Assembly (NCBI GenBank): GCA_963727625.1
Contig: CAVSHR010000006.1
Coordinates: forward strand, 192,001 to 256,000
Reading direction: 5' to 3'
Length of the DNA: 64,000 nt
Source of the DNA: an uncultured delta proteobacterium
GTDB taxonomy: Bacteria; Desulfobacterota; Binatia; UBA9968
Shown: piece by piece, positions 18,811 to 34,038 of the stretch
Position numbering within the stretch: position 1 is the first letter of the stretch
Layout of the letters: every line of letters begins with the position of its first letter
Program-made: the position numbers and the translations under genes
Notes under the pieces: generated by a model
Seen by the model: only the letters and a program-made list of their open reading frames with translations
Told to the model about the DNA's origin: nothing
Databases searched by the model: none

Positions 18811-19033
18811 CGATTGAACTCCTTTTGCGGCTCGTTGAACTCTACGCACAAGGCTCGCGTCCTTCAAGCGCTGTACCACAGGCGGGCATTTCGGTCGCGA
18901 CGCAAGCTTGCTACAGGGTGTATCAAACCGACTACTACAAGGCCCAGCCAGCGGCACTGGCCGCTTCTGGCCTCGGTGGAAATTGTCATGCCAATTCAAC
19001 GGCTTACTTCAAAGGAAAAACTCAGTTAGCGCC

Positions 19034-19048: not shown

Positions 19049-19166
19049 GCTATGACAGCTCCGACCGGGTATGCAGCGCCTAGCGGGCTACCAACGTTAC
19101 CCAAGATCAATCATTTCGGCTGGTGGATTTTTCCATGCAGTCCTGCCGGAAGGCTACGCAAATTTT

Positions 19167-20138
19167 ATGATGAACAAAGTTATTTTAGGCACGGCTCTAT
19201 TGTTGTTCAGTCTCACCTGTAGCGCCGCTGGACAGCCGGCGAAACCCTATCGGATCGGGGTTCTTCTTCCCGGCGGCCCTCAGTACGAAACCCTCGACGG
19301 ACTGCGCCAGGGCTTGAAAGAGCTAGGGCTCCGGGAAGGCAACCAGTACACTCTGGAGATCAGAGATGTCGAAGGAGATGCAACCGTCGCTCATGAAGGG
19401 GCCAGGGTCATGGAAAGAGCCAAAGTCAGTCTTATCTATGCGCTGACGACACCAGTCATTACGCAAGCCAAGGCGGCGACAGGTCACACTCCGATTGTCT
19501 TTTCGATCGGCAGCGATCCCGTCACCGGCGGGCTGGTCGAGAGTTTCGCCAAGCCAGGCGGCCGGCTCACCGGAGTCCATTATCTCGTCCGCGATCTCAC
19601 CGCCAAGCGCCTCGAAGTTTTGAAGGAGATCCTTCCCAAGATCGACCGAGTTCTTACCTATTACGATCCCGCCAATCGGGTTGCCGCCGAGGGCGCGACC
19701 CTGGCGCGCAACGAGGCGAAACGAATCGGCATCAAGCTCATCGAACGGCACGTTAGCTCCGTCGGCGAGCTGAAAAGCGAATTGCACAAGCTTAAGACCG
19801 GCGAAGCCGACGCCTTTTTCTTCACCGCGGACCTAATGGTGGGCAGTCAATCACAACTCATTATCGATAGCACCAAAGCAAAAAAGCTCCCGGCGATGTT
19901 TCAGGAGCGAACGCTAGTGGCCCAAGGCGCGCTCGCGAGCTACGGCCAGAACTACCGAGAGATCGGCCGGCTCTCGGCCAGGTACGTCCAGCAAGTTCTC
20001 ACCGGCACCCAGCCGAAGGATTTGAAAATCGAGACCGTCGACAGCGTCGAGCTGGCGATCAACTTGCAGACTGCCAGACAGCTCGGCATTACGATCCCGC
20101 CGCAAGTCCTGGCGCGCGCGCAGAAGGTGATCAAGTGA
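19167..20138 (+). CDS. ABC-type substrate-binding protein (ABC_sub_bind family), array copy 1
   Basis: Signal peptide, RIGVL, PIVF..DPV..GLVESFAKPGG.LTG, KRLEVLKE, INLQTARQLGITIPP. Confidence 0.9.
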   Translation: MMNKVILGTALLLFSLTCSAAGQPAKPYRIGVLLPGGPQYETLDGLRQGLKELGLREGNQYTLEIRDVEGDATVAHEGARVMERAKVSLIYALTTPVITQAKAATGHTPIVFSIGSDPVTGGLVESFAKPGGRLTGVHYLVRDLTAKRLEVLKEILPKIDRVLTYYDPANRVAAEGATLARNEAKRIGIKLIERHVSSVGELKSELHKLKTGEADAFFFTADLMVGSQSQLIIDSTKAKKLPAMFQERTLVAQGALASYGQNYREIGRLSARYVQQVLTGTQPKDLKIETVDSVELAINLQTARQLGITIPPQVLARAQKVIK

Positions 20139-20162
20139 AGATGGGCAACAGGCAACAGCGAT

Positions 20163-21143
20163 AAAGCGAAATTCGTTGCTCTCGCGCTCTGCGCTACGCT
20201 CTTTGCGCTATTGGGATCTGCTGAGGCGCAGCAGCCGAAGAAAGTCGAACGCATAGGGTATCTGGTATCAGTTCGTGGTGGGCTCGCGTCGACCGAAGAC
20301 GCGCTGCGAGCCGGTCTGCGCGAGCTAGACTACATCGAAGGACAGAATTTTGTCGTCGAGTCGCGATCTGCCGAAGGGAAGGTCGAGCGGTTACCGGGGC
20401 TTGCAGAGGATTTGATACGCCTGAAAGTTGACGTCATCGTTGTCACAAGCGTGCAGGGCGCTCTGGCTGCCAAAAAGGCTACTCAATCCATCCCCATTGT
20501 CTTTGCCGTCGCTCAAGATCCCGCAGGAAGCGGTCTGGTTGCCAGCCTTGCGCACCCAGGTGGAAATGTTACCGGAGTGACGGACTTCGCCCGAGAGTTA
20601 GCCGACAAGCGGCTGGAACTACTCAAGGAGACCGTTCCCAAGATCTCACGCCTAGCGCTCCTTTTGTGGAAACCGGCCGGACCGGACTATATGGCCGAGA
20701 GAAATGATATCGAGATGGCCGCCACAACCTTGCGAATCAAGATTCGGCCGGTCGAAGTGGGAAGCGCCAACGAGCTGGAGAGCGCCTTCGTGCGCATGGC
20801 CCAGGAGGGCGCCGATGCTTTTATGGGGCTGACGGACACGAGATTCGCCACCAATCGAAAACGGATCATCGAGCTGGTTGTGAAGAACCGTCTGCCGGCA
20901 GTGTATCAGGACTGGGTGTTCGTTCAGACCGGCGGTCTGATGTCTTACGGGACAAACCGTGTTCAGTGGCGGCGGCGCATAGCGTGGTACGTCGACAAAA
21001 TCCTTAAAGGCACGAAGCCGGCTGATCTTCCGGTCGAACGACCAACGAAATTCGAATTCGTTGTAAATCTCAAAGCCGCCAAGCGGATCGGCCTGTCGAT
21101 CCCGCCCAACGTGCTGGTGCGAGCGGATAGGGTGATTCAATGA
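20163..21143 (+). CDS. SBP array copy 2; signal peptide in frame but the start codon is out of frame
   Basis: Family motifs intact; KAKFVALALCATLFALLGSAEAQQ has no in-frame ATG (see findings). Confidence 0.8.
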   Translation, partial: KAKFVALALCATLFALLGSAEAQQPKKVERIGYLVSVRGGLASTEDALRAGLRELDYIEGQNFVVESRSAEGKVERLPGLAEDLIRLKVDVIVVTSVQGALAAKKATQSIPIVFAVAQDPAGSGLVASLAHPGGNVTGVTDFARELADKRLELLKETVPKISRLALLLWKPAGPDYMAERNDIEMAATTLRIKIRPVEVGSANELESAFVRMAQEGADAFMGLTDTRFATNRKRIIELVVKNRLPAVYQDWVFVQTGGLMSYGTNRVQWRRRIAWYVDKILKGTKPADLPVERPTKFEFVVNLKAAKRIGLSIPPNVLVRADRVIQ

Positions 21144-22144
21144 AAACAAGCCATAGCAAAAAAGCCAGCGTCATTGGCCTTACGCTTTTCGCCATGCTCT
21201 TTGCGCTTTGCCGTCCAGCCGAGGCGCAGCAAGCGGAGAAAGTCCCCCGGATTGGATACCTAAGCGGTAGCCCGCCTTCCGCTATCGCGGAACACAACGA
21301 GGCCTTCCGCCAAGGTCTGCGCGAGCTTGGATATATGGAGGGTAAAAATATTGTGATTGAGTGGCGATCTGCAGAGGGAAAACGTGACCGCCTACCGGCG
21401 CTTGCTACCGAGCTAGTGCACCTCAAGGTCGACGTCATCGTGACGGCTGGACCGTTAGTAACCCGTTCTGCCAAACAAGCAACTTCCACAATTCCGATTG
21501 TCATGGCGCAGGATCCCGATCCGGTCCGCAACGGGTTCGTTGCCAGCTTGGCACGGCCGGGCGGTAACATAACTGGACTTTCCAGAATTGCCCCGGAGCT
21601 AAGCGGAAAACAAATGGAGCTTTTGAAGGAGATCGTTCCCATGCTATCCCGCGTGGCCGTCTTCGGGACTTCAACCAGGCCGGGAAACGCACAAACGTTA
21701 AAAGAAGTGGAACTTGCTGCGGAGGGGTTCGGGGTGAAACTTCAATACCTAGACATCCTAAGTCCCAAAGATATTGTGACTGCATTCCGAGCCGCAGTTA
21801 AGGAACGGGCCGACGGCGCACTCTGGATCGTAACGGGCTCGATTGGGAATCCTCACCGAAAAAAGATTGCGGACCTCGCGGTGAGCAGCCGGCTCCCGGT
21901 GATATACTTTCAGCGAGTAGATGTGGAAGCCGGGGGGCTTATGTCCTACGGGGTGAACGTGGTCGACTTGCACCGCCGCGCCGCGGTGTACGTGCACAAG
22001 ATCCTGAAGGGCGCCAAGCCGGCTGATTTACCCGTTGAGCAGCCCACAAGGTTTGAGTTCGTAGTCAATCTCAAGACCGCGAACCAGATCGGCGTGACGA
22101 TTCCGCAGAACGTGCTGATGCGGGCGGATCGAGTTATTAGGTGA
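21140..22144 (+). CDS. SBP array copy 3
   Basis: ATGA overlap; SLARPGGNITG, KPADLPVEQPTRFEFVVNLKTA. Confidence 0.92.
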   Translation: MKTSHSKKASVIGLTLFAMLFALCRPAEAQQAEKVPRIGYLSGSPPSAIAEHNEAFRQGLRELGYMEGKNIVIEWRSAEGKRDRLPALATELVHLKVDVIVTAGPLVTRSAKQATSTIPIVMAQDPDPVRNGFVASLARPGGNITGLSRIAPELSGKQMELLKEIVPMLSRVAVFGTSTRPGNAQTLKEVELAAEGFGVKLQYLDILSPKDIVTAFRAAVKERADGALWIVTGSIGNPHRKKIADLAVSSRLPVIYFQRVDVEAGGLMSYGVNVVDLHRRAAVYVHKILKGAKPADLPVEQPTRFEFVVNLKTANQIGVTIPQNVLMRADRVIR

Positions 22145-22193
22145 AGAAGTTCGACCCGGAAACCAAATCGGGAGGCGGTTTGCCTATCTGGCG

Positions 22194-22544
22194 CTACCCG
22201 ACAAACCCATCTACGGGAATTAATCGCTTGGCGACAGGATCGACGCCGAGAAATAGGCTCTCAAGCGCTACGGCGCCGAGCAGCGGCGGACCGTCGGGCG
22301 CGATAAAACACGGAGTCGTGATCTCAGTGCCGTTCAGCGACAAACGTGCTTCGGCTACCGGCCAGACGTCTCGCTGTCCGCCGGCGATCACAACGCGTTG
22401 CGAGCGAGTGGATTTCAGCTCAAGCCTTTCCGCCAGGGACCGTGGCACTACGCTAAGAGTCGCACCGGTGTCCACCAAAAGCTCGACTTCTTCGCCACGC
22501 CCCGTGGGGCCAGTCAGATGCCCTTTTACGTGGAACAATCCCAT
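22194..22544 (-). CDS. Retropepsin-like (clan AA) aspartyl protease, cargo 1
   Basis: LLVDTGAT catalytic motif, PLLGAVALE; antisense to the array. Confidence 0.85.
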   Translation of the reverse strand: MGLFHVKGHLTGPTGRGEEVELLVDTGATLSVVPRSLAERLELKSTRSQRVVIAGGQRDVWPVAEARLSLNGTEITTPCFIAPDGPPLLGAVALESLFLGVDPVAKRLIPVDGFVG

Positions 22545-22625
22545 ATCAAAGGTCTTCCGAAAAACATGGTCATTGTAGCGCAGCTAGACAACAAAGCAAC
22601 AAAACTGGTTAGTCTATACAGGTTT

Positions 22626-22755
22626 GCCAACCCACAGATCTCCCGTCGAGCATCCGACCAAGTTCGAATCCGTGATCAATCTTAAAACCGCCCAGCAGAT
22701 CGGCATGACGATCGCGCCGAACGTCCTGGCGCGGGCGGATCGGGTCATAAGATGA
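22626..22755 (+). repeat. Orphan SBP 3'-tail A
   Basis: Translates [37 protein letters not shown], with 1-nt deletions at its 5' edge and no start. Confidence 0.9.
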
Positions 22756-22758
22756 CAG

Positions 22759-22831
22759 CACTGAGTTACGAGTGCTGAGGACTGAGGTGGTGATCTGTAA
22801 AGACCGGCACTCATGGCTCAGCACGCAGCAC
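22759..22831. repeat. Heptamer inverted-repeat leader
   Basis: CACTGAG TTACGAG TGCTGAG GACTGAG ... CTCATGG CTCAGCA CGCAGCA. Confidence 0.75.
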
Positions 22832-22846
22832 GTTTAGGGAGGAGAG

Positions 22847-23812
22847 ATGAGAAATAGTCTATTGCTTCTATTGGTCATAGTGGCCCTGGCCGTTGTCACC
22901 GCGGCTCAGGCGCAACAACCAGGGCGGATGCCGCGGATAGGTTATTTAAACATCGGGTCCAAAGTCGAGCGGCCATCTGAAGCATTCCTCCAAGGGCTGC
23001 GCGATCTCGGCTATGTCGAGGGAAAGAACATCATCATCGAGTACCGAGGGGATCCCCAAAGAAGGGAAGATCGACTGCCGGAGTTGGCGGCGGATCTGGT
23101 CCGTCTCAAAGTAGCCGTTATCGTTGCCCTGAGCCCACCGGCGGCGCGCGCCGCAAAGAACGCCACTCAGACAATCCCCATCGTCATTAGGACCACGGGA
23201 GACCCGGTTCGGGCAGGATTTGTTCAAAGTCTTGCTCGGCCGGGCGGAAATATCACGGGCGTTACCTCCATCTCATCGGAGTTATATGGCAAGCGGTTGG
23301 GGCTGCTCAAAGAGGTGATCCCGGGACTTTCCCGCGTGGGCGTTTTGCACAATCCGGACCGCAGCAACTTCAAGAAAATGCAGAGTGCGGCCAGGCCGCT
23401 AGCGTTGGAGCTTCGATCCTTAGAGGTCCGAACTTCGAATGATTTTGCCCCTGCGTTCACAACCGCAACCCGAGCCCACGCTCAAGCGCTCATCACCATA
23501 AGGACTCCACTTTTGAATAATCACCGAAAACAGATTGCCGAGTTGGCGATAAAGAGGCGGCTGCCGTCGATTTACGATGAAGTGCAATATGTCGATGTTG
23601 GCGGCCTGATGTCTTATGGGACGCACTTGGGTGACCTGCACCGGCGCGCCGCGGTTTTCGTCGACAAGATCCTCAAAGGAACTAAGCCGGCCGACATCCC
23701 AGTGGAGCAGCCAACGAAATTCGAGTTCGTGATCAATCTTAAAACCGCCAAGCAGATCGGTCTGACGATCCCGCCGAATGTGCTGGCGCGGGCGGACAGA
23801 GTAATTAGGTAA
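22847..23812 (+). CDS. SBP array copy 4
   Basis: RBS GGAGGAG, signal peptide, family motifs, ends [14 protein letters not shown]. Confidence 0.92.
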   Translation: MRNSLLLLLVIVALAVVTAAQAQQPGRMPRIGYLNIGSKVERPSEAFLQGLRDLGYVEGKNIIIEYRGDPQRREDRLPELAADLVRLKVAVIVALSPPAARAAKNATQTIPIVIRTTGDPVRAGFVQSLARPGGNITGVTSISSELYGKRLGLLKEVIPGLSRVGVLHNPDRSNFKKMQSAARPLALELRSLEVRTSNDFAPAFTTATRAHAQALITIRTPLLNNHRKQIAELAIKRRLPSIYDEVQYVDVGGLMSYGTHLGDLHRRAAVFVDKILKGTKPADIPVEQPTKFEFVINLKTAKQIGLTIPPNVLARADRVIR

Positions 23813-23859
23813 GTCCTGATCGGCGGACCGGTAATTTTCAAGAAAAGGAGGTGCAAGGC

Positions 23860-24834
23860 ATGATCACAAGGTCTCTCACCGTCCTGTTCGCTTGTGCGAT
23901 TCTGTTGTTTCACGAACCCAGCCAAGCGCAACAGCCGAAGCGAATCTGGCAGATCGGTTTGTTCCATGTGGGGTTGGACCATGTTCCGCCGTCATTTCCC
24001 GCGCTAAGGGAAGCAATCAAAGAACTGGGCTACGAAGAGGGAAAAAACAGCCATTTGGACTGGCGCAACCTGCCCGACGATGCGGCGGCCCTTGCTACCG
24101 CCCAAGAATTTACCCGCCAACCGGTCGATTTGATCGTGGCCTTTGAGGACCAGACGATTCGCGCTGCCAAGGCAGCCACCTCTGAAGTGCCAGTTTTATT
24201 CCTGCACGCGAATGCTCCTGTGAAGGATGGGTTTGTGAAAAGTTTTGCCCACCCTGGCGGTAATATGACCGGCTTCGTCACATGGCCCGTGTCCTATGGC
24301 AAGCGTGTCGAATTGTTCAAAGAGTTGATTCCTGATCTCCGCAGTCTGCTCCTGATCGCTCATCCGGACGATCCCGTCGGGCATCGCTGGCTGCAAGAAA
24401 TGCGCAGCGCCGGCGCCGCGCTGAAGCTTCGTTTGATCGAGCGCGAAGTCAGCAATCAAGCGGAAATCGAACGGGTGATGCGGTCCGTAAGGCGAGATGA
24501 AGTCGGCGGAGTCTTGGTAGCGTCTCTGATTCTCCGCAACAGTTACAGTTCGCTGATCGTCGATATTGCCTCGGAGCGGCGTCTACCCTTGGGGATGCAT
24601 CGCAAAGAATGGGTCGAGCGGGGCGCGTTGTTTTCCTATGCGGCGGACCTCGCCTCCGTCGGCCGGGCCGCCGCCCCCTATGTCGACAGGATTCTCAAAG
24701 GTACCAAGCCGGCGGATCTGCCGGTCGATCAGGTATCGCGATTCGAGCTGGTGATCAATCTGAAATCAGCCCAGAAACTTGGCCTGACGATTCCCCAATC
24801 GGTTCTGTTTCGCGCAACCAAGGTGATCAAATGA
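23860..24834 (+). CDS. SBP array copy 5 (divergent)
   Basis: SD AAGGAGGTG; SFAHPGGNMTG, ILKGTKPADLPV. Confidence 0.9.
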   Translation: MITRSLTVLFACAILLFHEPSQAQQPKRIWQIGLFHVGLDHVPPSFPALREAIKELGYEEGKNSHLDWRNLPDDAAALATAQEFTRQPVDLIVAFEDQTIRAAKAATSEVPVLFLHANAPVKDGFVKSFAHPGGNMTGFVTWPVSYGKRVELFKELIPDLRSLLLIAHPDDPVGHRWLQEMRSAGAALKLRLIEREVSNQAEIERVMRSVRRDEVGGVLVASLILRNSYSSLIVDIASERRLPLGMHRKEWVERGALFSYAADLASVGRAAAPYVDRILKGTKPADLPVDQVSRFELVINLKSAQKLGLTIPQSVLFRATKVIK

Positions 24835-24931
24835 TCGAGCCGAAGTCGCAAGTCGCGGAGGGCGAAACACGGCCCCTAGGAAACCTCGCAAGCGATAGCC
24901 CAATTAATTAAATCCTTCAAGGAGGTGGGTT

Positions 24932-25523
24932 ATGACGCGCAACAAAATGATTTTGTCCGTGCTGCTGGCGGCCATCGTCCACGCGGGCGGAGCATGGGCA
25001 CAACAATAGTTCACCATCAAGAATCTTGTCGAGAAAAAGGTGTAAGAGTCACCGGCAGGGTCGCTTTACTGGCGGATCGAGAACTTTGCCGGCCTCGCCG
25101 AGGCGCAGGCCGCCGCCGGTCCTACGGCACTGGCAGCTCCATCGATGGGCAAGGTTTGGCTCTTTACGCTCGGCGGCACCGGTGGATCAACACCGGGAGG
25201 CATCAAGGTCCTGAGGTCGGACCCATTCCCCTGTTCGTTGCGCCGGACTATCTCCTGCGTATCAACGAGGCGAGCGGCCCTCCTGGCAGCGTAACGTCCC
25301 AGCACACTCATCCGGGCTTCGAGACCTTCTACGTGCTCGCTGGGGAGCAAACCATTCGTACGCCTCAAGGCGTGCTCCGTGTTCGGGCTGGCCAACCCGC
25401 GACCGACCGTGACGCAGACAATCCGATGCGTTCTCGAGCAGCGGCTCGACAGATCTTCACTCCTTGGCGATGTTCGTGGTAGATGCCACCAGGCCTTTTT
25501 CATATCCGGCCACGCTGCCCTAG
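24932..25523 (+). pseudogene. Exported cupin-domain pseudogene, cargo 2
   Basis: SD AAGGAGGTG; MTRNKMILSVLLAAIVHAGGAWAQQ*FTIKNLVEKKV*..LYWRIENF../..HTHPGFETFYVLAGEQ../..MFVVDATRPFS; two stops and two frameshifts. Confidence 0.8.
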
Positions 25524-25543
25524 GCTGGCTGCGGTCCCGCATA

Positions 25544-25594
25544 CTCTCGATTCCTCCGAACGTGCTGGCGCGGGCGGATCGGGTGATCAAATGA
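25544..25594 (+). repeat. Orphan SBP 3'-tail B
   Basis: [16 protein letters not shown], 20 nt after the cupin stop. Confidence 0.9.
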
Positions 25595-25787
25595 CCTACG
25601 GGAATGCTCGGATCGAACTTTGTTCTCCATCAACTAAGTGTCGCATGAAGCCAAACTGAAGCGTAGTTCAGTTCAATCGGACGTTGAATGAGCATCTTCC
25701 CCCGAAGCACCGGTTCCCTTTCCACTATAATTCTTATTATTCTCAGCTTCCGTCTTTATCTTACATACGCTCGCGAACGAGGTGGAT

Positions 25788-26771
25788 ATGAAAAGACTTG
25801 GTTCACTATCAATCCTGGTTGCAGTGAGTTTGCTTACTGTTGCGATTCCGGCCGAGGCGCAGCAGGCAGTTCAACCGGCGCGTATCTGTTGGCTTTCCGC
25901 CGGTGGGGGCGGTGATCATTTGGCTCTCAATGCATTCCGCGACGGCATGCGTGACCTAGGGTACGTTGAAGGCCGCAATCTAGTGATCGATGCACGTTGG
26001 GGCGATGGATCTAAAAAGCTCCTCGACCAGTACGCGGTCGAGCTAGTACGCTCAAGCCCCCGGGTGCTCGTGACGCAAGCAGGACAGGCGATCTTTGCCG
26101 TACGTCGGACAAAGCCGACGATCCCGATCGTGTTCGGGCTCAGCGGCGATCCGGTGGAAGCTGGATTAGTCGACAGCTTCGCGCATCCCGGCGGTAATTT
26201 TACCGGCGTGTCTTTTCTTTCCCTTGACCTTGTCGGCAAGCGCATGGTGCTGCTGAAGGAAACCATTGTCTCGCTCAAGCGCGTCGCCGTGCTCGCTAAT
26301 CCGAGTCATCCAGGCGAGAAAAGCGAGCAGAGCGCAACCCGCGCTGCGGCAAAAGCGCTCGGTCTCGATTTTGAGTATTTTCCGGCACGGCCAGGACAGG
26401 ATTACGACCGCGTCCTTCCCGCCGTCGCCAAATCTCGTAGCCAAGCGTTATTTGTTTTTCCCGATGCTGGAGTAATCGGAAACAGTGAAAAGATCGCCGC
26501 CTTCTCAGTGAAGAATCGCATCCCGGCGATGTCCGGTTGGGCCGAATTTGCCGAGCGAGGAAATCTTATGACCTACGGTCCAATTTTGAATGAAGGTTAC
26601 CGGCGGCTGGCAACGTACGTCGATAAAATTCTTAAGAGAGCCAAGCCGATGGATCTGCCGGTCGAGCTGCCGAAGAAGTTCGAGCTAGTGATCAATCTGA
26701 AAACCGCCAAGCAGATCGGCCTGACGATTCCGCCGAACGTGCTGGCAAGGGCAGACAGGGTCATTCGATGA
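25788..26771 (+). CDS. SBP array copy 6
   Basis: Signal peptide, SFAHPGGNFTG, ends [14 protein letters not shown]. Confidence 0.92.
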   Translation: MKRLGSLSILVAVSLLTVAIPAEAQQAVQPARICWLSAGGGGDHLALNAFRDGMRDLGYVEGRNLVIDARWGDGSKKLLDQYAVELVRSSPRVLVTQAGQAIFAVRRTKPTIPIVFGLSGDPVEAGLVDSFAHPGGNFTGVSFLSLDLVGKRMVLLKETIVSLKRVAVLANPSHPGEKSEQSATRAAAKALGLDFEYFPARPGQDYDRVLPAVAKSRSQALFVFPDAGVIGNSEKIAAFSVKNRIPAMSGWAEFAERGNLMTYGPILNEGYRRLATYVDKILKRAKPMDLPVELPKKFELVINLKTAKQIGLTIPPNVLARADRVIR

Positions 26772-26797
26772 ATGGTCAGGCGAAAAGCTTGAGTTTC

Positions 26798-27262
26798 TCA
26801 GCTCTGAAGAAAATCGCACAGGACCAGTATTTCGATGGCGTTAACTTTCTTCACGCGCTTATCGTTGGTCAAAAACAGAGTGGCCTCCTGTTGAATGGCC
26901 GCAGCGATTTGCAGGGCATCGGGCAGCCGGAGCGTGTAGCGCGCCCGAATGAGCGCCGCGGCTTCAGCCAGTTTCTCGTCGATTGTTACGACGGAGAGCG
27001 AAGCGAAAGACTTCAGGCTGAATTTGATTTCATCGGCCAGAGAAAAGTTCTTATCGGCAAACGGTTTTGCGAGGATCTCGGCCAGTGTCACGGCCGAGGT
27101 GACGGCACGCAGAGCATGATTCTCCAAAAGACTAAATACCGGATCGAGAAGATCGGCATACGGAGTAACTTCCTCGATATAATAAATGAAGGGCGCGGTA
27201 TCGAGACCAACGACCTTGTGCTTTTCGATGACCCGTCGCAGTCTATGCGCGTTGCCATTCAT
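26798..27262 (-). CDS. vapC: PIN-domain toxin (VapC family), cargo 3
   Basis: VGLDTAPFIY, SAVTLAEIL, LRLPDALQIAAA, FLTND. Confidence 0.88.
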   Translation of the reverse strand: MNGNAHRLRRVIEKHKVVGLDTAPFIYYIEEVTPYADLLDPVFSLLENHALRAVTSAVTLAEILAKPFADKNFSLADEIKFSLKSFASLSVVTIDEKLAEAAALIRARYTLRLPDALQIAAAIQQEATLFLTNDKRVKKVNAIEILVLCDFLQS

Positions 27263-27488
27263 CCCGCAGCTTCTCTAGATAGGCATCAATCTTGGCGCGA
27301 CTGCCCCAGGTGCCTTTGCCGAGACCGCGCAGACGCCCGGCAGAACTTTTCGGTTTAGGCCGGAGGATAATTTTGTTGCCCTCAACGACAGCGGCCAACT
27401 GGTCGCCGGGCTTTAAGTCCAAGCTCTTGCGGATCTCTTTGGAAATGACGATTTGCGACTTTTGATTAAGAGTTAGCACCGATTCCAT
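27243..27488 (-). CDS. AbrB/MazE-like antitoxin
   Basis: KSQIVISKEIRKSLDLKPGD..IILRP; upstream of and overlapping the toxin. Confidence 0.88.
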   Translation of the reverse strand: MESVLTLNQKSQIVISKEIRKSLDLKPGDQLAAVVEGNKIILRPKPKSSAGRLRGLGKGTWGSRAKIDAYLEKLRDEWQRA

Positions 27489-27514
27489 AATTATACTCCA
27501 AATGATCGATTTGG

Positions 27515-27547
27515 GATAAATTTATCAGACTTGGGTTACTGAATCAA
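27515..27547 (-). promoter_or_regulatory. TA promoter with palindromic operator
   Basis: TTGATT-N17-TAAATT on the minus strand; perfect palindrome GATAAATTTATC (27515-27526) over the -10. Confidence 0.65.
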
Positions 27548-27555
27548 CTGACACA

Positions 27556-27624
27556 ACCGCGAAACAAATCGGCCTGACGATCCCGCCGAATGTGTTGGCG
27601 CGGGCGGACCGGGTCATCAGATGA
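27556..27624 (+). repeat. Orphan SBP 3'-tail C
   Basis: [22 protein letters not shown]. Confidence 0.9.
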
Positions 27625-27627
27625 CAC

Positions 27628-27686
27628 TGCTGAGGACTGAGTTGAAAATCAGGAAAAACTCAGTACTCATGGCCCAGCACTCAGGA
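27628..27686. repeat. Heptamer inverted-repeat leader
   Basis: TGCTGAG GACTGAG ... CTCAGTA CTCATGG CCCAGCA CTCAGGA. Confidence 0.75.
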
Positions 27687-27704
27687 CTTCCGTGGGGCGG
27701 AGCG

Positions 27705-28685
27705 ATGAAAAATATTTATTGTTTTCTTTTAATCGTCGCGTACTTGGGCGGCGGTGCAATCGCCGAGGCGGAGCAGCCGAAGAAGGTCTCTCGGATAGGG
27801 TATCTATCGGCGCTCTCACAACCCGCTGACTCTTACCGCAGCGAGGCATTCCGCCGAGGGCTGCGCGAGCTCGGCTATGTCGAGAAAAAAAACGTCACCA
27901 TCGAATACCGATATGCGAAAGGTAAGGTCAATGTCCTCTCCGAGCTTGCGGCCGAGCTTGTTCGTCTCAAAGTAGACATCATTGTTACGCAGAGCACGCT
28001 CGATGCCTATGCTGCCAGGCAATCGACAAGCGCAATTCCCATCGTCATGATCGCCAGCGACGATCCGGTGGGCACCGGGCTCGTCGCCAGCCTGGCGCGG
28101 CCTGGTGGTAACATCACCGGGCTGACATCTCTTTCCCGGGAGCTAAGCGGTAAGCGGCTGGAGCTGCTCAAGGAGGCGGTACGCGGACTCGCGCGCGTGG
28201 CGGTCCTCTGGAATGCGGCTAACCCAGACAAGGCCCGCGATGTCGAAGCGACGCAGGTCCAGGCAAGAACGTTAGGTCTAGAGCTTCAATCCCTAGAGGT
28301 GCGGGGTCCCGATGATTTTGACGGCGCATTCCAAACCGCCACCAGAAAGCGTGCTGGCGCGCTCCTCATGTTAGCAGACCCCTTGACCATTACTTATCAA
28401 TCACGGATCGTAAACCTGGCGACAAAAAGCCGGCTGCCGTCGATGCATGAGCAGAGGGAGTTTGTGGATGCTGGAGGCCTGATGGCCTATGGGCCCAGCC
28501 TTCTCGGTCTGTTCCGGCACGTCGCTACCTATGTGGACAAGATTCTCAAAGGCGCCAAGCCTGCCGACCTCCCTGTGGAGCAGCCGACGCAGTTTGAGCT
28601 GGTCATCAACCTGAAGACCGCTAAGAACATCGGCCTTACCCTCCCGCCTGAACTGCTTGCCCGGGCAAACAAAGTTATTAAATGA
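27705..28685 (+). CDS. SBP array copy 7
   Basis: Start after GGAG; signal peptide; family motifs. Confidence 0.92.
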   Translation: MKNIYCFLLIVAYLGGGAIAEAEQPKKVSRIGYLSALSQPADSYRSEAFRRGLRELGYVEKKNVTIEYRYAKGKVNVLSELAAELVRLKVDIIVTQSTLDAYAARQSTSAIPIVMIASDDPVGTGLVASLARPGGNITGLTSLSRELSGKRLELLKEAVRGLARVAVLWNAANPDKARDVEATQVQARTLGLELQSLEVRGPDDFDGAFQTATRKRAGALLMLADPLTITYQSRIVNLATKSRLPSMHEQREFVDAGGLMAYGPSLLGLFRHVATYVDKILKGAKPADLPVEQPTQFELVINLKTAKNIGLTLPPELLARANKVIK

Positions 28686-28795
28686 TAGCGCGCCTTGCAT
28701 GTGGAATCTTTTGCCTCTCGAAGAGAAGGATCTTTCAGCACTCGGCCAGATAAATGCGCCATGGACAACCTGGGCTCCTAAGAAGGGATAGAACG

Positions 28796-29338
28796 ATGAA
28801 GAGAAAAAAGCCTCTCATGGCAATCTTTCTAGGCGGCCTGCTTCTCCTGCTATCGACGCCGCTTCTTGCGGTGAACGTCGGGGATAAGGCACCGGACTTT
28901 GAACTTCCCAGCACGAGAGGAGGAAAACTCAAGCTGAGCAGCCTTCGGGGGAGAAATGTGCTGATTAACTTTTACCTCACTGATTACAGCCCCACGTGAA
29001 CCAAGCATATTCTCTCGTCCGGTGCGGACAATTACGCAAAGTTCAAGGCAGAGAATACCGAGGTTTTGGGCATAAGCGCCAATGCGCCCTTTTCTCAAAA
29101 GGCCTTCGCGGAGTTTCTGAAATTGAATTATCCCCTTCTCAGTGATTCTCAGGACCAAAAGGTCATGAAGTCCTACGGCGTATTCGACAAAGCGAGCGGC
29201 GGTGTCAAGCGTTCGTATTTTCTTATCGACAAGAAGGGCATTGTCCGTTTCAAGAGCGTCAGGCCCAGCGCCCTGGAACAAGACCTTCTCTCCACCGACG
29301 AGCTACTGAAAGAGGTCAAGAAAATCAACAAAGGTTAG
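28796..29338 (+). CDS. Exported peroxiredoxin-like (AhpC/TSA) selenoprotein, Sec at UGA 28997-28999, cargo 4
   Basis: [51 protein letters not shown] in one frame; no Cys anywhere in the protein. Confidence 0.88.
29017..29029 (+). promoter_or_regulatory. Putative SECIS hairpin
   Basis: GTCC-GGTGC-GGAC; loop starts 22 nt after UGA with G. Confidence 0.6.
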
Positions 29339-29340
29339 GG

Positions 29341-29448
29341 AAGCAGCCGACCAAATTCGAGCGGGTAATTAATATCAAGGCCGCCAAGCAGATCGGTCTG
29401 ACGATCCCGCCGAATGTGCTGGCGCGGGCGGACAAAGTGATTCGATAG
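29341..29448 (+). repeat. Orphan SBP 3'-tail D
   Basis: [35 protein letters not shown]; begins 2 nt after the Prx stop. Confidence 0.92.
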
Positions 29449-29449
29449 C

Positions 29450-29564
29450 ATTTTCGGCTTTGGATTTTCGATTTGAGGGAAACGAACGATGAATGTAGTT
29501 TCTTTGAAGAGAATTTCCGAGCCTTACTCCGACAATCTAAAATCGGCAATCCAAAATCCAAAAT
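29450..29564. repeat. Heptamer inverted repeat straddling the start of SBP copy 8
   Basis: ATTTTCG GCTTTGG ATTTTCG ATTTGAG ... CAATCTA AAATCGG CAATCCA AAATCCA. Confidence 0.75.
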
Positions 29565-30538
29565 GGTGGGGAATCTTTGCATTCTCGCTCGCATTGGTCT
29601 TCGGTGGGTTTGAGGCACGGGCGCAGGAGCAACGCAAAATCCCCCGGATCGGCTATTTGTCCAACACCGATCCAGATCGAGATTCCGCCCGTGCCACGGC
29701 CTTTAAGCTTGCACTGCGCGACCTGGGGTACATCGAAGGAAAAAGCGTCGCCATCGAGTACCGAGACGCTAGGGGCGGGCGCGATCGGCAACGGAAATAC
29801 GCTGCCGAGCTGGCGAGTTTGCCCGTCAATTTAATCTTTGCAACGTCAACAACAATGGCCCTGGCTGCCAAAAGTTTCACCAAAGCGATTCCAATCATCT
29901 TTCTTAGTGCCACAGAGCCTGTGACATCGGGACTCGTAAAGAGCCTGGCACGCCCCAGCGGAAATCTTACAGGGTTTGCCACGATCGCAGCGGCATTAGC
30001 TGGCAAACGCTTGGAGTTGCTCAAGGAGACCCTTCCCAACCTTACGCGACTCGCCATCTTGTGGCAGCCGCAAAATAAAGGATCTGAAGAATCGTGGAAG
30101 GAAAGCCAACTGGCGGCTCGACAGCTCGGCTTGAAGATCCATTCCATGGAGGTCAGCAGCCCTGACAAGTTCGAGAGCGCTTTCGGTCTTGCGAGCAAGG
30201 CGAACAGCGATGCGCTAGCCGTGACGTTGAGTAGTTTATTCAGTTTAAATCGAAAATTGATTGTTTCCCTAGCAGCCAAACATCGGCTACCCGCGATCTA
30301 CACGCGCGATGAATTCGCCGATAGGGGTGGTTTGATGTCCTATGGTGCAGATGAAGGTGAGCCATTCAAGCGCATCGGCGTGATGATCGACAAGATTCTG
30401 AAAGGCGCGAAGCCTGCCGACCTACCAGTAGAGCAGCCGACGAAGTTCGAGTTGGTCATCAATTTAAGAACGGCCAAACAGATCGGCCTCACTATCCCGC
30501 CCAACGTGCTGGAAAGGGCGGATCGGGTGATCAGATGA
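29489..30538 (+). CDS. SBP array copy 8
   Basis: Family motifs; N-terminus contains repeat-encoded NLKSAIQNPK. Confidence 0.9.
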   Translation: MNVVSLKRISEPYSDNLKSAIQNPKWWGIFAFSLALVFGGFEARAQEQRKIPRIGYLSNTDPDRDSARATAFKLALRDLGYIEGKSVAIEYRDARGGRDRQRKYAAELASLPVNLIFATSTTMALAAKSFTKAIPIIFLSATEPVTSGLVKSLARPSGNLTGFATIAAALAGKRLELLKETLPNLTRLAILWQPQNKGSEESWKESQLAARQLGLKIHSMEVSSPDKFESAFGLASKANSDALAVTLSSLFSLNRKLIVSLAAKHRLPAIYTRDEFADRGGLMSYGADEGEPFKRIGVMIDKILKGAKPADLPVEQPTKFELVINLRTAKQIGLTIPPNVLERADRVIR

Positions 30539-30541
30539 CAG

Positions 30542-30614
30542 GACTGAGGGCTGAGCAATGAGTGCGAGTCTCCGGGCCTCTCCAACTCAGTACTCAGTCT
30601 TCGCTGGTCAGTCC
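30542..30614. repeat. Heptamer inverted-repeat leader
   Basis: GACTGAG GGCTGAG CAATGAG ... CTCAGTA CTCAGTC .. GTCAGTC. Confidence 0.75.
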
Positions 30615-30631
30615 TTTGCTGAAGAGGAGCG

Positions 30632-31612
30632 ATGAAAACCATTCCATGCCTAATCCTAATCATCGGGTTGATGGGCGGTGGCGCAATCGCCCAGGCGCAG
30701 CAGCCAAAGAAAATCCCGCGGATAGGATTCCTCTATAGCGTTACCTCTTCCTCGGTGGCGGCCCGCGCCGAGGCATTCCGGCAAGGTCTGCGCGAGCTTG
30801 GCTACATTGAAGGGAAGAACATTGTTATTGAGTGGCGATTTGCAGAGGGAAAACTAGATCGCCTCCCCGCGCTTGTGTCGGAGCTGGTGCGTCTTAAGGT
30901 AGACGTGATCGTCACGAGTGGCTCGTCACCAACCCGCTCTGCCAGGAAAGCAACTGTTTCGATTCCCATTGTGATGGCGCGCGAAACCGATCCTGTTGGG
31001 AATGGATTCGTCGCCAGCTTGGCGCGGCCTGGCGGGAACATCACTGGATTGTCAATTCTCGCCCCGGAGATAAGCGGGAAACAGGTGGGGCTTTTGAAGG
31101 AGATTGTTCCCAGGCTCTCACGCGTGGCCGTCCTCGGGACTTCGACCACTCTAGGTTGGGCACACTCGTTAAACGAGATGGAGATCGCTGCGGGGGCATT
31201 GGGAGTGAAGCTTCAGTACCTAGATGTGCTAAATGTCAAAGACATTGTGACTGTATTCCGAGCCGCAATTGAGGAGCGTGCTGACGCAGTCCTCGTGCTA
31301 GGGAGCCCAATTTACGCTTCTCATCGAAATCAGATTGCGGGCATCGCGGTAAAAAGCCGGCTTCCGACGATATACCGCAATTCACAATATGTGGAAGCCG
31401 GGGGACTTATGTCCTACGGGGTGAACCTGCCCGACTTGGACCGGCGCGCCGCTATTTATGTGGACAAAATTCTGAAAGGCAGGAAACCCGCAGACCTTCC
31501 CGTAGAGCAACCGGTCAAGTTCGAGTTTGTCATCAACCTGAAAACAGCAAAGCAAATCGGACTCACGATTCCGCCCAATGTACTTGCGCGGGCGAATAAA
31601 GTAATAAGGTGA
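30632..31612 (+). CDS. SBP array copy 9 (close paralog of copy 3)
   Basis: RBS GAGGAG; family motifs. Confidence 0.92.
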   Translation: MKTIPCLILIIGLMGGGAIAQAQQPKKIPRIGFLYSVTSSSVAARAEAFRQGLRELGYIEGKNIVIEWRFAEGKLDRLPALVSELVRLKVDVIVTSGSSPTRSARKATVSIPIVMARETDPVGNGFVASLARPGGNITGLSILAPEISGKQVGLLKEIVPRLSRVAVLGTSTTLGWAHSLNEMEIAAGALGVKLQYLDVLNVKDIVTVFRAAIEERADAVLVLGSPIYASHRNQIAGIAVKSRLPTIYRNSQYVEAGGLMSYGVNLPDLDRRAAIYVDKILKGRKPADLPVEQPVKFEFVINLKTAKQIGLTIPPNVLARANKVIR

Positions 31613-34038
31613 ATACACCGCCCATGAGCCACTGGACCGCAAAGCTTCGGCAAATGCCTTTCTTAAGAATCTTTGGAGCGCCGCGCCGAGGGCGGTTAGT
31701 GCGCGACTACTTTCTGATCTCGGTCATCTTAATTGGCGGCGGGCTGATCACCAGCGGCCTCGTCGAAATCTATTTTCGCTATCACGAAAGCCGCGATCAG
31801 TTGGGCCGCTTGCAGAAAGAGATCGCCGCCGGCGCCGCCTTCAAGATCGAGAGCTTCGTTCAGGAGATTCACAATACCCTCAAGGGCGCGACTAAAAGCC
31901 GCGACATCGCGCCCAAGGGACTCACTCCGGACTTTCGCTTCGAGCTCGAAAAACTTTTGCTGATCGCGCCGGCAGTGACCGAAGCCGTAGCGCTCAATGA
32001 GAAAGGCCGGATCCAAGTCCAGGCGTCGCGCCTGCGCACCGTGCTGCCCGACGCCAGAAAGGATCTTTCCGGCTCGGAACCGTTCAAACAAGCGCGCGAG
32101 GGAAAGTCCTATTTCGGCCGGGTCTACTTCGTGCGCGGCTCCGAGCCCTATATGACGATCGCGGTCCCGATCGAGCGCTTCGCCGGCGACGTCATCGGCG
32201 TGCTGCAAGCGGAAGTCAACCTTAAATACATCGGCGATGTCGTTTCGAGTATCACCATCGGCAAAGCGGGTTATGCCTACGCTGTGAGCCGATCCGGCGA
32301 ACTGATCGCCCACCCCGACATCAGTTTGGTCTTGCAACGCCGCAACGTGCGCCAATTGGCTGCCGTCAAAGCCGCCTTCGAGAGCCAGCCCGGAGTGGCG
32401 CCACTAGACGCACTCGTCACAAAAAATATTCAGGGAAAGGAAGTGCTGAGTTCGTTTGCGATCATTCCCGATTTCGGCTGGGCGGTGATCGTCGACCGGC
32501 CCTTGGCCGAGGCCTACGAAGCGCTCTATGCCTCGATGCTGCGCACCGCCGCTCTGTTCCTGATCGGTCTCAGCATGGCGCTATTCGCCAGTTATTTTCT
32601 CGCCCGCCGCGTCGTGCAACCGGTGCGGATACTGCGCGAAGGCGTGGAGCGCATCGGTACCGGCGATCTCGGCTATCGGTTGAATCTCAAGACCGGCGAC
32701 GAAATAGAAGTGCTCGCCGATGAATTCAACAAAATGACTTCCCAGCTCGAGGAATCTTACGCCAACTTGGAGCAGAAGGTCGAAGACCGCACGAGGGAGC
32801 TGACGGAGTCGCTGGAGCAGCAGACGGCGACCAGCGAAGTCCTGCGCGTCATCGCGGGATCGCCGAAAGATGTCCAACCGGTGCTTGACGTCGTGGCGGA
32901 GCGGGCAGCAAAGCTCTGCGACGCCGAGGACGCGATCATCTTTCGCGCCTTTGGCGATTACCATCAGAGAGTCGCCAAGTTTGGCTCGATTCCAGCCCCG
33001 GATTTTCCGGTGTCGATCACGCGCGGTTTTCCCGGCGGCCGAGCCATTCTCGACCGGAAGACCGTTCACATCCATGATATCGAGGAGGTGCTCGAGACCG
33101 AATATACGGACGTCCGGTCGATTCAAAAAGAGATCGGGCAGCGCACCGTGCTCGCCACGCCACTCTTGCGCGAGGGCGTCGCGATCGGCGCCATCGTCAT
33201 TCGCCGCCTGCAAGTACGGCCGTTTACCGACAAGCAGATTGCGCTGCTCAAAACCTTCGCCGATCAGGCCGTGATCGCCATCGAAAACGTCCGTCTGTTC
33301 CAGGAGATTCAGGAGAAGAACGAACAGCTCGAGGCTGCCAGCCGACACAAATCTCAATTTCTCGCCAACGTCAGCCACGAGCTGCGCACGCCGCTCAATT
33401 CGATCATCGGCTTTACAAGAATAGTTTTGCGCCGCACGGAGGGCAAGATCGAAAGCCTGCAAAAAGAAAATCTGAAAAAAGTTTTGATCAGCGCAGATCA
33501 TTTGCTGAGCCTGATCAACGAGCTGCTCGACCTGGCAAAGATCGAGGCGGGGCGGATGGAAGCCTACGCGGAAACGTTTAAAGTCGACGAGATCATCCGC
33601 ATGGCCATGTCCACGGTCGAACCGATGCTTAGGAACGGCCGGGTAAATCTGGTCACGGACATCGCTCCGGACATTCCGCCGCTGAAAACCGATCGAGACA
33701 AGCTCAAACAGTCCGTCCTCAATCTTCTCAGCAACGCCGTCAAGTTCACCGAGAGCGGCGAGATCAAGGTCACAGCGTGGCGAGACAATGGTTCTTTGAA
33801 GCTCACCGTATCCGATACCGGCATAGGCATGAACCCGGAAGCGCTCCGATACATCTTCGACGAGTTCCGCCAGGCTGACATGTCGAGCACGCGCAAATAC
33901 GGCGGCACGGGCCTTGGCTTGGCCATTGTGAAAAAGTTCATCAATCTTATGGGCGGCGATATCGTCGTCGCAAGCGAAGAAGGCAAAGGATCGACGTTCA
34001 CGATCACGATGCCGCTGGAACTGAAAATTCAAGGGTAA
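31609..34038 (+). CDS. Sensor histidine kinase: TM-Cache-TM-HAMP-GAF-HisKA-HATPase
   Basis: YAYAVSRSGELIAHPD (Cache), DEIEVLADEFNKM (HAMP), FADQAVIAIEN (GAF), SHELRTPL, NAVKF, DTGIG, GTGLGL; GTGA overlap with SBP copy 9. Confidence 0.93.
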   Translation: MNTPPMSHWTAKLRQMPFLRIFGAPRRGRLVRDYFLISVILIGGGLITSGLVEIYFRYHESRDQLGRLQKEIAAGAAFKIESFVQEIHNTLKGATKSRDIAPKGLTPDFRFELEKLLLIAPAVTEAVALNEKGRIQVQASRLRTVLPDARKDLSGSEPFKQAREGKSYFGRVYFVRGSEPYMTIAVPIERFAGDVIGVLQAEVNLKYIGDVVSSITIGKAGYAYAVSRSGELIAHPDISLVLQRRNVRQLAAVKAAFESQPGVAPLDALVTKNIQGKEVLSSFAIIPDFGWAVIVDRPLAEAYEALYASMLRTAALFLIGLSMALFASYFLARRVVQPVRILREGVERIGTGDLGYRLNLKTGDEIEVLADEFNKMTSQLEESYANLEQKVEDRTRELTESLEQQTATSEVLRVIAGSPKDVQPVLDVVAERAAKLCDAEDAIIFRAFGDYHQRVAKFGSIPAPDFPVSITRGFPGGRAILDRKTVHIHDIEEVLETEYTDVRSIQKEIGQRTVLATPLLREGVAIGAIVIRRLQVRPFTDKQIALLKTFADQAVIAIENVRLFQEIQEKNEQLEAASRHKSQFLANVSHELRTPLNSIIGFTRIVLRRTEGKIESLQKENLKKVLISADHLLSLINELLDLAKIEAGRMEAYAETFKVDEIIRMAMSTVEPMLRNGRVNLVTDIAPDIPPLKTDRDKLKQSVLNLLSNAVKFTESGEIKVTAWRDNGSLKLTVSDTGIGMNPEALRYIFDEFRQADMSSTRKYGGTGLGLAIVKKFINLMGGDIVVASEEGKGSTFTITMPLELKIQG

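Follow-up and report, generated by a model that had tools for sequence, protein, structure and literature searches.

Islands and prophages that sit at tRNA genes or at icd (e14) show a well-known layout: an intact gene, the inserted DNA, then a displaced orphan copy of the gene 3' end. We describe here an outwardly similar layout in a tandem array of solute-binding protein (SBP) genes of the PF04392 family, carried by an uncultured delta proteobacterium (assembly GCA_963727625.1, contig CAVSHR010000006.1). The 64,000-nt stretch analysed, called the window below, corresponds to C6:192001-256000 of this genome (G000, the own genome); the other genomes compared are relatives labelled G004-G040, and their loci are labelled L001-L123; no conclusion depends on G005, an unpublished genome. 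Four times the array is interrupted by cargo genes and each time the cargo is followed by a start-less SBP 3' end, or orphan tail. In contrast to the tRNA and icd cases, the inserts are of one or two genes without an integrase, and orphan and upstream gene tail are not related to each other. With a probability of about 0.5 for the explanation as a whole, we take the locus to be a birth-and-death tandem array of PF04392 SBP genes ahead of a sensor kinase.

Other described systems come close. Chromosomal integron arrays (superintegrons), as presented in one report (PMC2654758), resemble the SBP locus by their long co-oriented array, their repeated unit ends and their interspersed toxin-antitoxin (TA) and antisense cargo; the same report proposes that TA modules guard such arrays against large deletions. 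The SBP locus departs from them in that it has no IntI gene, attI or structured attC-like site; the repeated sequence is where the coding part of a gene ends, its extent varies and half of the cargos lack it; and the array is built mainly of paralogs from a single family instead of unrelated cassettes. According to a second report (PMC3967940), Rhs and contact-dependent inhibition (CDI) loci are rearranged by homologous recombination through a conserved piece shared with orphan modules. These rhs-CT and cdiA-CT modules are, like the SBP orphans, start-less fragments holding a piece of the conserved region just downstream of a full-length gene. In those modules, however, a variable toxin tip comes after the conserved piece, which permits toxin switching, whereas the SBP orphans consist of the conserved tail only, come after unrelated cargo and end at the family stop codon. 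In the flexible genomic islands of Alteromonas, replacement or additive exchange is reported to take place by homologous recombination in conserved flanks (PMC4898812). There too, variable content is swapped between conserved flanks without a dedicated recombinase; the flanks in those islands are reported to be whole core genes, here they are a 130-nt gene tail repeated dozens of times in one genome. By analogy, the locus would work most like TA-stabilised cassette arrays and Rhs orphan modules, while being a member of neither class. A full-text literature search, with most subscription journals outside its coverage, returned no description of tail relics beside cargo in SBP arrays.

Orphan tails and the conserved end of the SBP genes

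As the original prediction, made from the letters of the window alone, had stated, nine tandem SBP paralogs are present: nine intact co-oriented open reading frames (ORFs) of the ABC_sub_bind family (PF04392) lie between an AI-2E transporter gene and a histidine kinase gene (Table 1). A hidden Markov model (HMM) built from the nine genes and searched against the 237,581 six-frame ORFs of the own genome aligns with them from positions 2-7 to position 327. SBP4 matches the Pfam PF04392 profile with 160.7 bits (cut-off 25.9) over positions 19-292 of 293, and the other eight align with SBP4 over their full length.

After each of the four cargos comes a start-less SBP 3' end whose stop codon stands at the stop position of the family. 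The isolated tails that had been reported after each cargo were recovered by the HMM, with E-values of 1e-8 to 5e-16 for three of them and of 0.047 for the shortest. Contigs from other public runs, which may include the source sample, span three of the junctions (22479-22649, 28380-29064 and 29364-29514) with 0-2 differences. The four insertions themselves stand with two refinements: the cupin match of cargo 2 falls below the Pfam cut-off, this cupin-like ORF being probably a remnant, and the peroxiredoxin gene of cargo 4 is full length with a signal peptide. An in-frame TGA (~28997-28999) occupies the peroxidatic Cys position (..YSPT*TKH..) of its otherwise open AhpC/TSA frame; as read from the sequence, the gene would be either a selenoprotein gene or a pseudogene. 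Paralogs of the peroxiredoxin (47-65% identity) adjoin other SBP genes at C6:227523 and C4:84821. The VapC and AbrB/MazE genes of cargo 3 overlap by 20 nt, the gene layout of type II TA (VapBC) modules, with predicted toxin and neutralisation activities.

The last 130-150 nt are the sole part of the SBP genes that stays alike at the DNA level among paralogs. Over the last 45 codons, the 13 intact paralogs of the own genome have a nucleotide identity of 0.70-0.74 (0.37-0.63 elsewhere in the gene) and an amino acid identity of 0.71-0.78 (0.15-0.65 elsewhere); synonymous-codon identity is only mildly higher there (0.52-0.56 versus 0.25-0.63, mostly 0.35-0.45). The left borders of the orphans are found 45-135 nt from the stop codon, with clusters near the start of the conserved block and near -48 to -70.

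Each unit contains a short direct repeat, the 15-nt motif SAGCAGCCGAMSAAR, which codes for (A/E)QPKK at the mature N-terminus and for EQPTK where the tail block begins. The motif has 13 matches in the window against 2.65 expected, a number reached in none of 100 shuffles. This repeat can explain losses of the body in which a remnant of the signal peptide persists, C2:166921 being an example. As the source of the cargo-associated orphans it was rejected: orphan tail 4, for example, abuts the peroxiredoxin stop codon, beginning 2 nt past it and exactly at the motif common to SBP N-termini and tails.

Scanning genomes for SBP pieces detached from a full gene, a check proposed along with the original prediction, bore out the excess of tails. 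In the own genome, orphan tails number nine, of which four belong to the window, three to a second array on C2 and two are solitary, on C4; there is a single isolated head (C2:172223-172414, E = 7e-6) and no isolated middle, to be compared with ~20 full or broken genes in the C6 and C2 arrays plus scattered copies; three further partial HMM matches belong to a divergent SBP cluster at C2:230-234 kb. Relatives were surveyed through three sets of loci, which share genomes and are not independent; fragment classes were assigned automatically, pieces at locus ends being left out. At 11 kinase-anchored loci, selected independently of the tails, there were 29 full and 12 broken genes, 5 short tails (75 aa or less), 3 long tails, 4 heads and no middle. 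The corresponding numbers were 95, 58, 18, 6, 10 and 3 for 20 array loci picked through tail matches, and 118, 9, 11, 2, 3 and 0 for 80 loci anchored on full-length relatives of SBP4. Inspection of the maps by eye showed that many of the automatic 'heads' are pieces of broken genes lying beside their own 3' part.

A detection control was run with 40-aa pieces from 119 real SBPs, E-values being scaled to the genome. Counted from the C-terminus, the detection rate was at least 96% over the last 80 residues, 82% in the following step, 37-53% between 80 and 140 residues and at least 94% between 140 and 260; at the N-terminus it was 55-71%. Since pieces from most regions of the protein are detected, the excess of tails is real for orphans of at least 33 codons (23 of the 33 listed). 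Pieces of 20 aa were reliably detected only within the last 40 residues, so that a bias among the shortest orphans, or mini-tails, cannot be judged. Mini-tails are also found without any cargo, 27-125 nt behind a full SBP gene: one is at C2:168134-168175 of the own genome and others occur at 6 of the 80 SBP4-anchored loci (L053, L065, L083, L094, L111 and L123). They are 14-19 codons long and have a recurrent left border near HMM position 309-314; body loss sparing the last 45-57 nt therefore recurs even in the absence of cargo.

The second array of the own genome (C2:163500-172500) comprises three broken SBP genes, three orphan tails and a TA pair of the PemK plus ribbon-helix-helix type. One of its orphan tails directly precedes an NMT1-type SBP gene, which is followed by the isolated SBP head and by a GAF kinase gene. 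The two solitary tails, C4:193535-198952 and C4:1302137-1302229, are degenerate and far from SBP genes: one adjoins an insertion sequence (IS) transposase gene, 3.3 kb from a weak tyrosine-recombinase match, and the other is between globin-like and BNR/sialidase-like ORFs.

Cargo and unit order in relatives

In the arrays of relatives, 35 gaps of 250-1200 nt (mostly 500-970 nt) were found behind a complete tail. The cargo was followed by a short orphan tail in 17 of them and had no tail in the other 18. Pfam matches in the 17 tail-flanked gaps were PIN (7, plus one PIN_3), PemK (1), ParE (1), several antitoxin families, Asp_protease_2 (2), TENA (1) and His_Phos_1 (1); those in the 18 tail-less gaps were PemK (2), Phd (2), ParE, HicA, PIN, Asp_protease (2) and other SBP families. 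The commonest cargo is the type II TA module, present in ~10 of the 17 tail-flanked gaps. Among 23 cargo segments compared there was only one homologous pair: this led us to reject the spreading of one cassette to many places and, 22 of the 23 cargos being mutually unrelated, there is no sign of recent spread.

Two of the cargos of the window (VapBC with its orphan, and the aspartyl protease) recur in 4-5 species amid non-orthologous SBP genes, once at another genomic locus. Orthologs of the VapBC pair (68-84% amino acid identity) exist in G017, G040, G004 and G014; in each of them the pair comes after an SBP gene and before an orphan tail. This orphan has its left border at HMM position 301-306 in four of the five species, and at 316 in G014. 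The upstream SBP bodies of the five loci align only in the tail, save those of G040 and G014 (66% identity). What lies downstream also differs: the block precedes an SBP gene in G017, as it does in the own genome; in G040 and G014 it precedes an amidohydrolase gene, and in G004 this gene comes after a second TA pair. The own ortholog of this amidohydrolase (81% identity) is on C7, a contig without PF04392 match. The state of the orphan varies among the five species: intact in the own genome and in G017, intermediate in G004, degenerate in G040 and G014. VapBC and its orphan are inherited as a block while the surrounding SBP genes differ between species.

Orthologs of the protease of cargo 1 show 80-93% amino acid identity in five relatives. 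In G017, G012 and G018 (90-93%) the gene lies between two SBP genes that are at most 58% identical to any paralog of the own genome, and whose best own matches are neither SBP3 nor SBP4. In G009 and G014 it is outside SBP arrays, and the homology ends at the gene ends. Retropepsin-like Asp_protease_2 genes (110-135 aa) recur as single-gene cargo in the SBP arrays of relatives (L013-L017, L001, L026 and others); two are in tail-flanked gaps and two in other gaps, and in G014 one adjoins a second, larger aspartic protease gene.

Comparing loci among relatives, which had also been suggested with the original prediction, revealed that units are shuffled from one species to another. For 194 between-genome pairs whose bodies are at least 80% identical, neighbours were also related in only 21 of 135 cases on the upstream side and in 21 of 141 on the downstream side. 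A G018 array and a G017 array share eight blocks with identities of 86% or more; these begin close to the mature N-terminus, six of them finish at the stop codon, and they follow one another in scrambled order. Orthologs of the histidine kinase (62-84% identity) are located behind SBP arrays of differing content. Close pairs were more alike in their bodies (about 0.84; ~0.82-0.88 along the length in a set of 23 pairs) than over the last 60 nt, where identity fell to 0.75-0.77. Tail identity hardly follows body identity, with a mean of 0.76 for bodies at 0.65-0.70 and of 0.81 for bodies at 0.80-0.90.

Proposed origin and upkeep of the orphan tails

We consider that the orphan tails are 3' relics of lost SBP units, kept by homologous recombination together with TA addiction; the odds that this is right are about even. 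A start-less tail would be what is left of an SBP unit minus its body, the place of the body being occupied by small autonomous genes, mostly type II TA modules. The left border would have been set by an old illegitimate event and be inherited with the cargo; it could only erode. Homologous recombination by the host could act only in the conserved tail block, where the orphan would keep crossing over with the working tails of downstream units, so that its right part up to the stop codon would be renewed. Addiction to the TA module would select against tail-to-tail deletions removing cargo and orphan together, and the orphan would decay once no SBP gene follows. No dedicated recombinase would be necessary. 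Such an account would explain a coding-like pattern without translation, an exact stop codon, left-hand erosion, decay without a downstream SBP gene and changing neighbours.

The likeness of orphans to the tails of their neighbours was ranked among 200. The upstream tail had a median rank of 113.5, whereas the downstream tail had a median rank of 45 and was in the top 8 in 6 of 20 cases. Orphans are somewhat like the downstream tail and unlike the upstream one, and the loss of a tandem paralog therefore fits. Duplication of the tail or target site at insertion was rejected, the orphan being unrelated to the tail of the upstream gene. Concerted evolution of tails within a genome was not seen either: orphans are no closer to the tails of their own genome, their best own-genome matches being at 0.58-0.92.

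If the explanation by relics and recombination is true, the conserved end of a gene family can set where a tandem array breaks and rejoins, and TA modules are fixed points that both interrupt and stabilise arrays, an integrase-free chromosomal counterpart of the proposal made for the stabilisation of superintegrons. The locus would then make a case for studying the turnover of sensor and binding-protein repertoires in big-genome soil bacteria, the spread of TA modules without transposases, and coding-like sequence in non-coding relics. It would also give a rule for annotation: a start-less PF04392 tail stands for a lost unit, not a gene.

Several points weigh against this explanation. Homologous recombination alone cannot create an orphan: a prior illegitimate deletion or replacement with its right end within the last 45-135 nt is needed, a step that the explanation does not supply. 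Short direct repeats linking the 5' end of the gene with the beginning of the tail block may underlie some founding events. For the best match, the likeness of orphans is 0.84 with own-genome tails and 0.85 with those of other genomes, which gives no sign of recent exchange. No crossover was directly observed; the four public runs searched contain a 0.00-0.13 share of the words and give only thin coverage and short contigs (150-685 nt), and the joints listed were short-sided and came from paralogs or other organisms. Neither circles nor deletion variants appear in these runs, an absence that carries no weight. The end of a conserved block at the stop codon is no proof of a breakpoint, because intergenic DNA may be too diverged to align. 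The sets of close pairs behind the identity and neighbour analyses are not independent, and the closest pairs need not be orthologs. About a third of the SBP genes are broken in some relatives, which blurs the counts of heads and tails; the frameshifts concerned (L022-L028, G017 and G018; 58 broken versus 95 intact genes in the 20 array loci) may be assembly indel errors, not pseudogenes, and the assemblies of many relatives are fragmented. Finally, the data do not discriminate between cargo that moves and SBP genes that turn over around cargo that stays in place.

A tentative alternative, rather unlikely in our estimate, involves movement of the cargo. Selfish cassettes (TA modules, the retropepsin-like protease and other single genes) would carry a piece of SBP tail as a portable right homology arm. 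A RecA-dependent double crossover, using also the full tail upstream, would move them into any SBP array of the same or another genome in replacement of an SBP body, and addiction would then keep both the cassette and the array from collapse. Such a cassette system would do without a recombinase, its 'site' being the conserved end of genes of a host family.

Ordinary erosion of pseudogenes is unlikely, for all that part of the data agrees with it. Random deletions would whittle down dead SBP genes, and the tail would be seen last, being the part that adjoins the needed leader of the next gene and that is easiest to recognise. The orphan of the protease locus, 129 nt long in the own genome, does shrink at its orthologous place: G012 keeps ~60 nt, interrupted by indels, and a further remnant of 27 nt, G017 keeps 27 nt and G018 nothing recognisable. 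Variable left borders, the 18 tail-less gaps, the lack of a fair comparison for mini-tails and the commonness of broken SBP genes also agree with erosion. Against it, heads and middles are few although the search would have found 40-aa pieces of most parts of the protein, and tail lengths, rather than ranging over 0-1000 nt, cluster at or below the length of the conserved block. The orphans also have the look of coding tails: over the last 60 nt, their mismatch to the consensus at the three codon positions is 0.157/0.116/0.303 (29 orphans) versus 0.172/0.100/0.348 for 138 intact genes, without excess at the first and second positions. Their amino acid identity to the consensus is 0.834 (0.832 for intact genes), and 28 of the 29 keep the stop codon. 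Moreover, in an orthologous TA cassette of G040 and G012 the orphan is ~80% identical, whereas the intergenic DNA on either side cannot be aligned.

The same coding-like conservation and exact stop codon could mean that the orphan is kept for a function in cis for the next gene, as a leader, a short frame for translational coupling, or part of a promoter or processing site. Most orphans are 41-194 nt ahead of the next start codon; the VapBC orphan is intact before an SBP gene and decayed before the amidohydrolase gene, and an orphan of the C2 array precedes an NMT1-type SBP gene. This idea is nevertheless quite improbable. Twelve of the 33 orphans have no in-frame start codon at or before their border and only eight have a Shine-Dalgarno-like sequence, and independent translation as a general feature is for that reason unlikely. 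Promoter sites of the sigma-70-like type, the only type covered by the scan, numbered 8 versus 6.0 expected in the whole region, with no systematic placement in tails. Alignments of 24 tails (RNAalifold; 48, 66 and 130 nt) gave no conserved fold for the sense strand and only a 6-bp stem of -5.9 kcal/mol for the antisense strand, and an Rfam search of the region gave no match at E-values up to 1. Besides, many SBP genes behind cargo do without an orphan, and the protease orphan decays even though an SBP gene follows.

The original prediction had the conserved tail as a landing site for gene capture in the manner of integrons. It is supported only in part: tails, not heads or middles, are left behind, the tail is conserved as DNA, cargo and tail form a block and unit order is scrambled. 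Such a dedicated site-specific system, in which a recombinase acting in trans would use the tail to insert, excise and shuffle cargo-tail units, is supported by the same type of sequence ending every unit, by the recurrence of cargo plus tail as a block in varied contexts and at another locus, and by L038, where two serial cargo-tail units have the same left border. Integron arrays, too, typically contain TA pairs and antisense cargo (PMC2654758). The capture system itself did not stand up, and we hold it to be very improbable. Of the 16 tyrosine-recombinase (PF00589) matches in the own genome none is in or beside C6:211-224 kb or C2:163-173 kb, the nearest being the weak one 3.3 kb from a degenerate solitary tail; the two resolvase matches are away from both arrays, and no integrase family appears among the Pfam matches of 117 cargo ORFs. 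No attC-like structured site was recognised, as judged from the lack of a conserved hairpin in the 24 tails (the R''/L'' core motifs were not searched by pattern). A repeat site of fixed extent at each boundary was not found: borders range over 45-135 nt and half of the cargo gaps (18/35) are tail-less. The orphan is not a copy of the upstream tail and decays in some lineages, and 22 of 23 cargos are mutually unrelated. General homologous recombination with retention of relics fits the data better than site-specific capture.

Least probable of all are scars of an integrative element that targeted the SBP 3' end, brought a replacement tail, displaced the original one and later shrank to a TA pair, since, for all the agreement of the layout (gene, cargo, displaced 3' end), the frequent survival of TA pairs from decayed mobile elements and the solitary C4 tail with its neighbouring IS transposase gene and weak integrase match, the cargo gaps are uniformly small (250-1200 nt by selection), none has an integrase in the survey, the orphan is unrelated to the upstream tail and the left borders are scattered.

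Flanking genes, leaders and coordinates

Table 1. Coordinates of the SBP array, its cargo and its flanks (positions in the window)
Feature	Position	Strand	Match or remark
AI-2E family transporter gene	17743-18999	-	Left flank of array; PF01594 E 2e-53
SBP1	19071-20138	+	PF04392 paralog; family HMM 5-6 to 327, E 2e-128 to 2e-147 for SBP1-SBP3
SBP2	20211-21143	+	PF04392 paralog; family HMM to 327
SBP3	21140-22144	+	PF04392 paralog; family HMM to 327
Cargo 1, retropepsin-like aspartyl protease gene, 116 aa	22194-22544	- (antisense to array)	Asp_protease_2 E 8e-13
Orphan tail 1	22626-22755	+	~129 nt, ends TGA; HMM 291-327 at 22642-22752, E 5e-16; sharp left border
SBP4	22847-23812	+	PF04392 E 6e-47; family HMM 3-327
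SBP5	23851-24834	+	Family HMM 3-327
Cargo 2, weak cupin-like ORF	24925-25482	+	Cupin_2 E 1.4e-4, 21.9 bits (Pfam cut-off 27.2 bits)
Orphan tail 2 (mini-tail)	25544-25594	+	~48 nt + stop, 16 codons; HMM 312-327 at 25544-25591, E 0.047; plain by eye
SBP6	25782-26771	+	Family HMM 2-327, E 9e-138
Cargo 3 toxin, VapC (PIN)	26798-27262	-	PIN E 6e-15
Cargo 3 antitoxin, AbrB/MazE-type	27243-27488	-	MazE_antitoxin E 2e-9
Orphan tail 3	27556-27624	+	~66 nt + stop; HMM 306-327 at 27556-27621, E 1e-8; inherited with VapBC
SBP7	27621-28685	+	Family HMM 3-327, E 4e-149
Cargo 4, secreted peroxiredoxin gene, full length with signal peptide	28796-29338	+	AhpC-TSA E 2e-14 on C-terminal part
Orphan tail 4	29341-29448	+	~105 nt + stop; HMM 294-327 at 29344-29445, E 3e-14
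SBP8	29489-30538	+	Family HMM 3-4 to 327, E 9e-143
SBP9	30632-31612	+	Family HMM 3-4 to 327, E 1e-149
dCache-HAMP-GAF histidine kinase gene	31609-34038	+	Right flank; Pfam domains
15-nt motif, N-termini	20229, 27771, 30698		
15-nt motif, tails	22648, 23705, 26664, 28578, 29341, 30431		

The stop codon of SBP9 overlaps the GTG start codon of the histidine kinase gene (31609-31612), which suggests that array and kinase are co-transcribed and translationally coupled, so that the SBPs may serve sensing, not transport. The array contains neither permease nor ATPase genes. The true start of SBP7 is probably internal to the ORF given in Table 1, near 27705. NMT1/THI5-type binding proteins form a far larger family than PF04392 in the own genome, with more than 100 tblastn matches to one of them.

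The leaders between SBP genes (after 22755, 27624, 29448 and 30538) are often filled by short tandem heptamer repeats of the ..CTGAG, GCGTGAG and AAAATCN types, which recall the STRR (short tandemly repeated repetitive) sequences of cyanobacteria. We rejected them as a mobile or recombining element, for they are present genome-wide and have no tie to tails: in a strict scan of the genome, 26 stretches of period 7 were counted, versus 0-19 for periods 5, 6, 8, 9 and 10.

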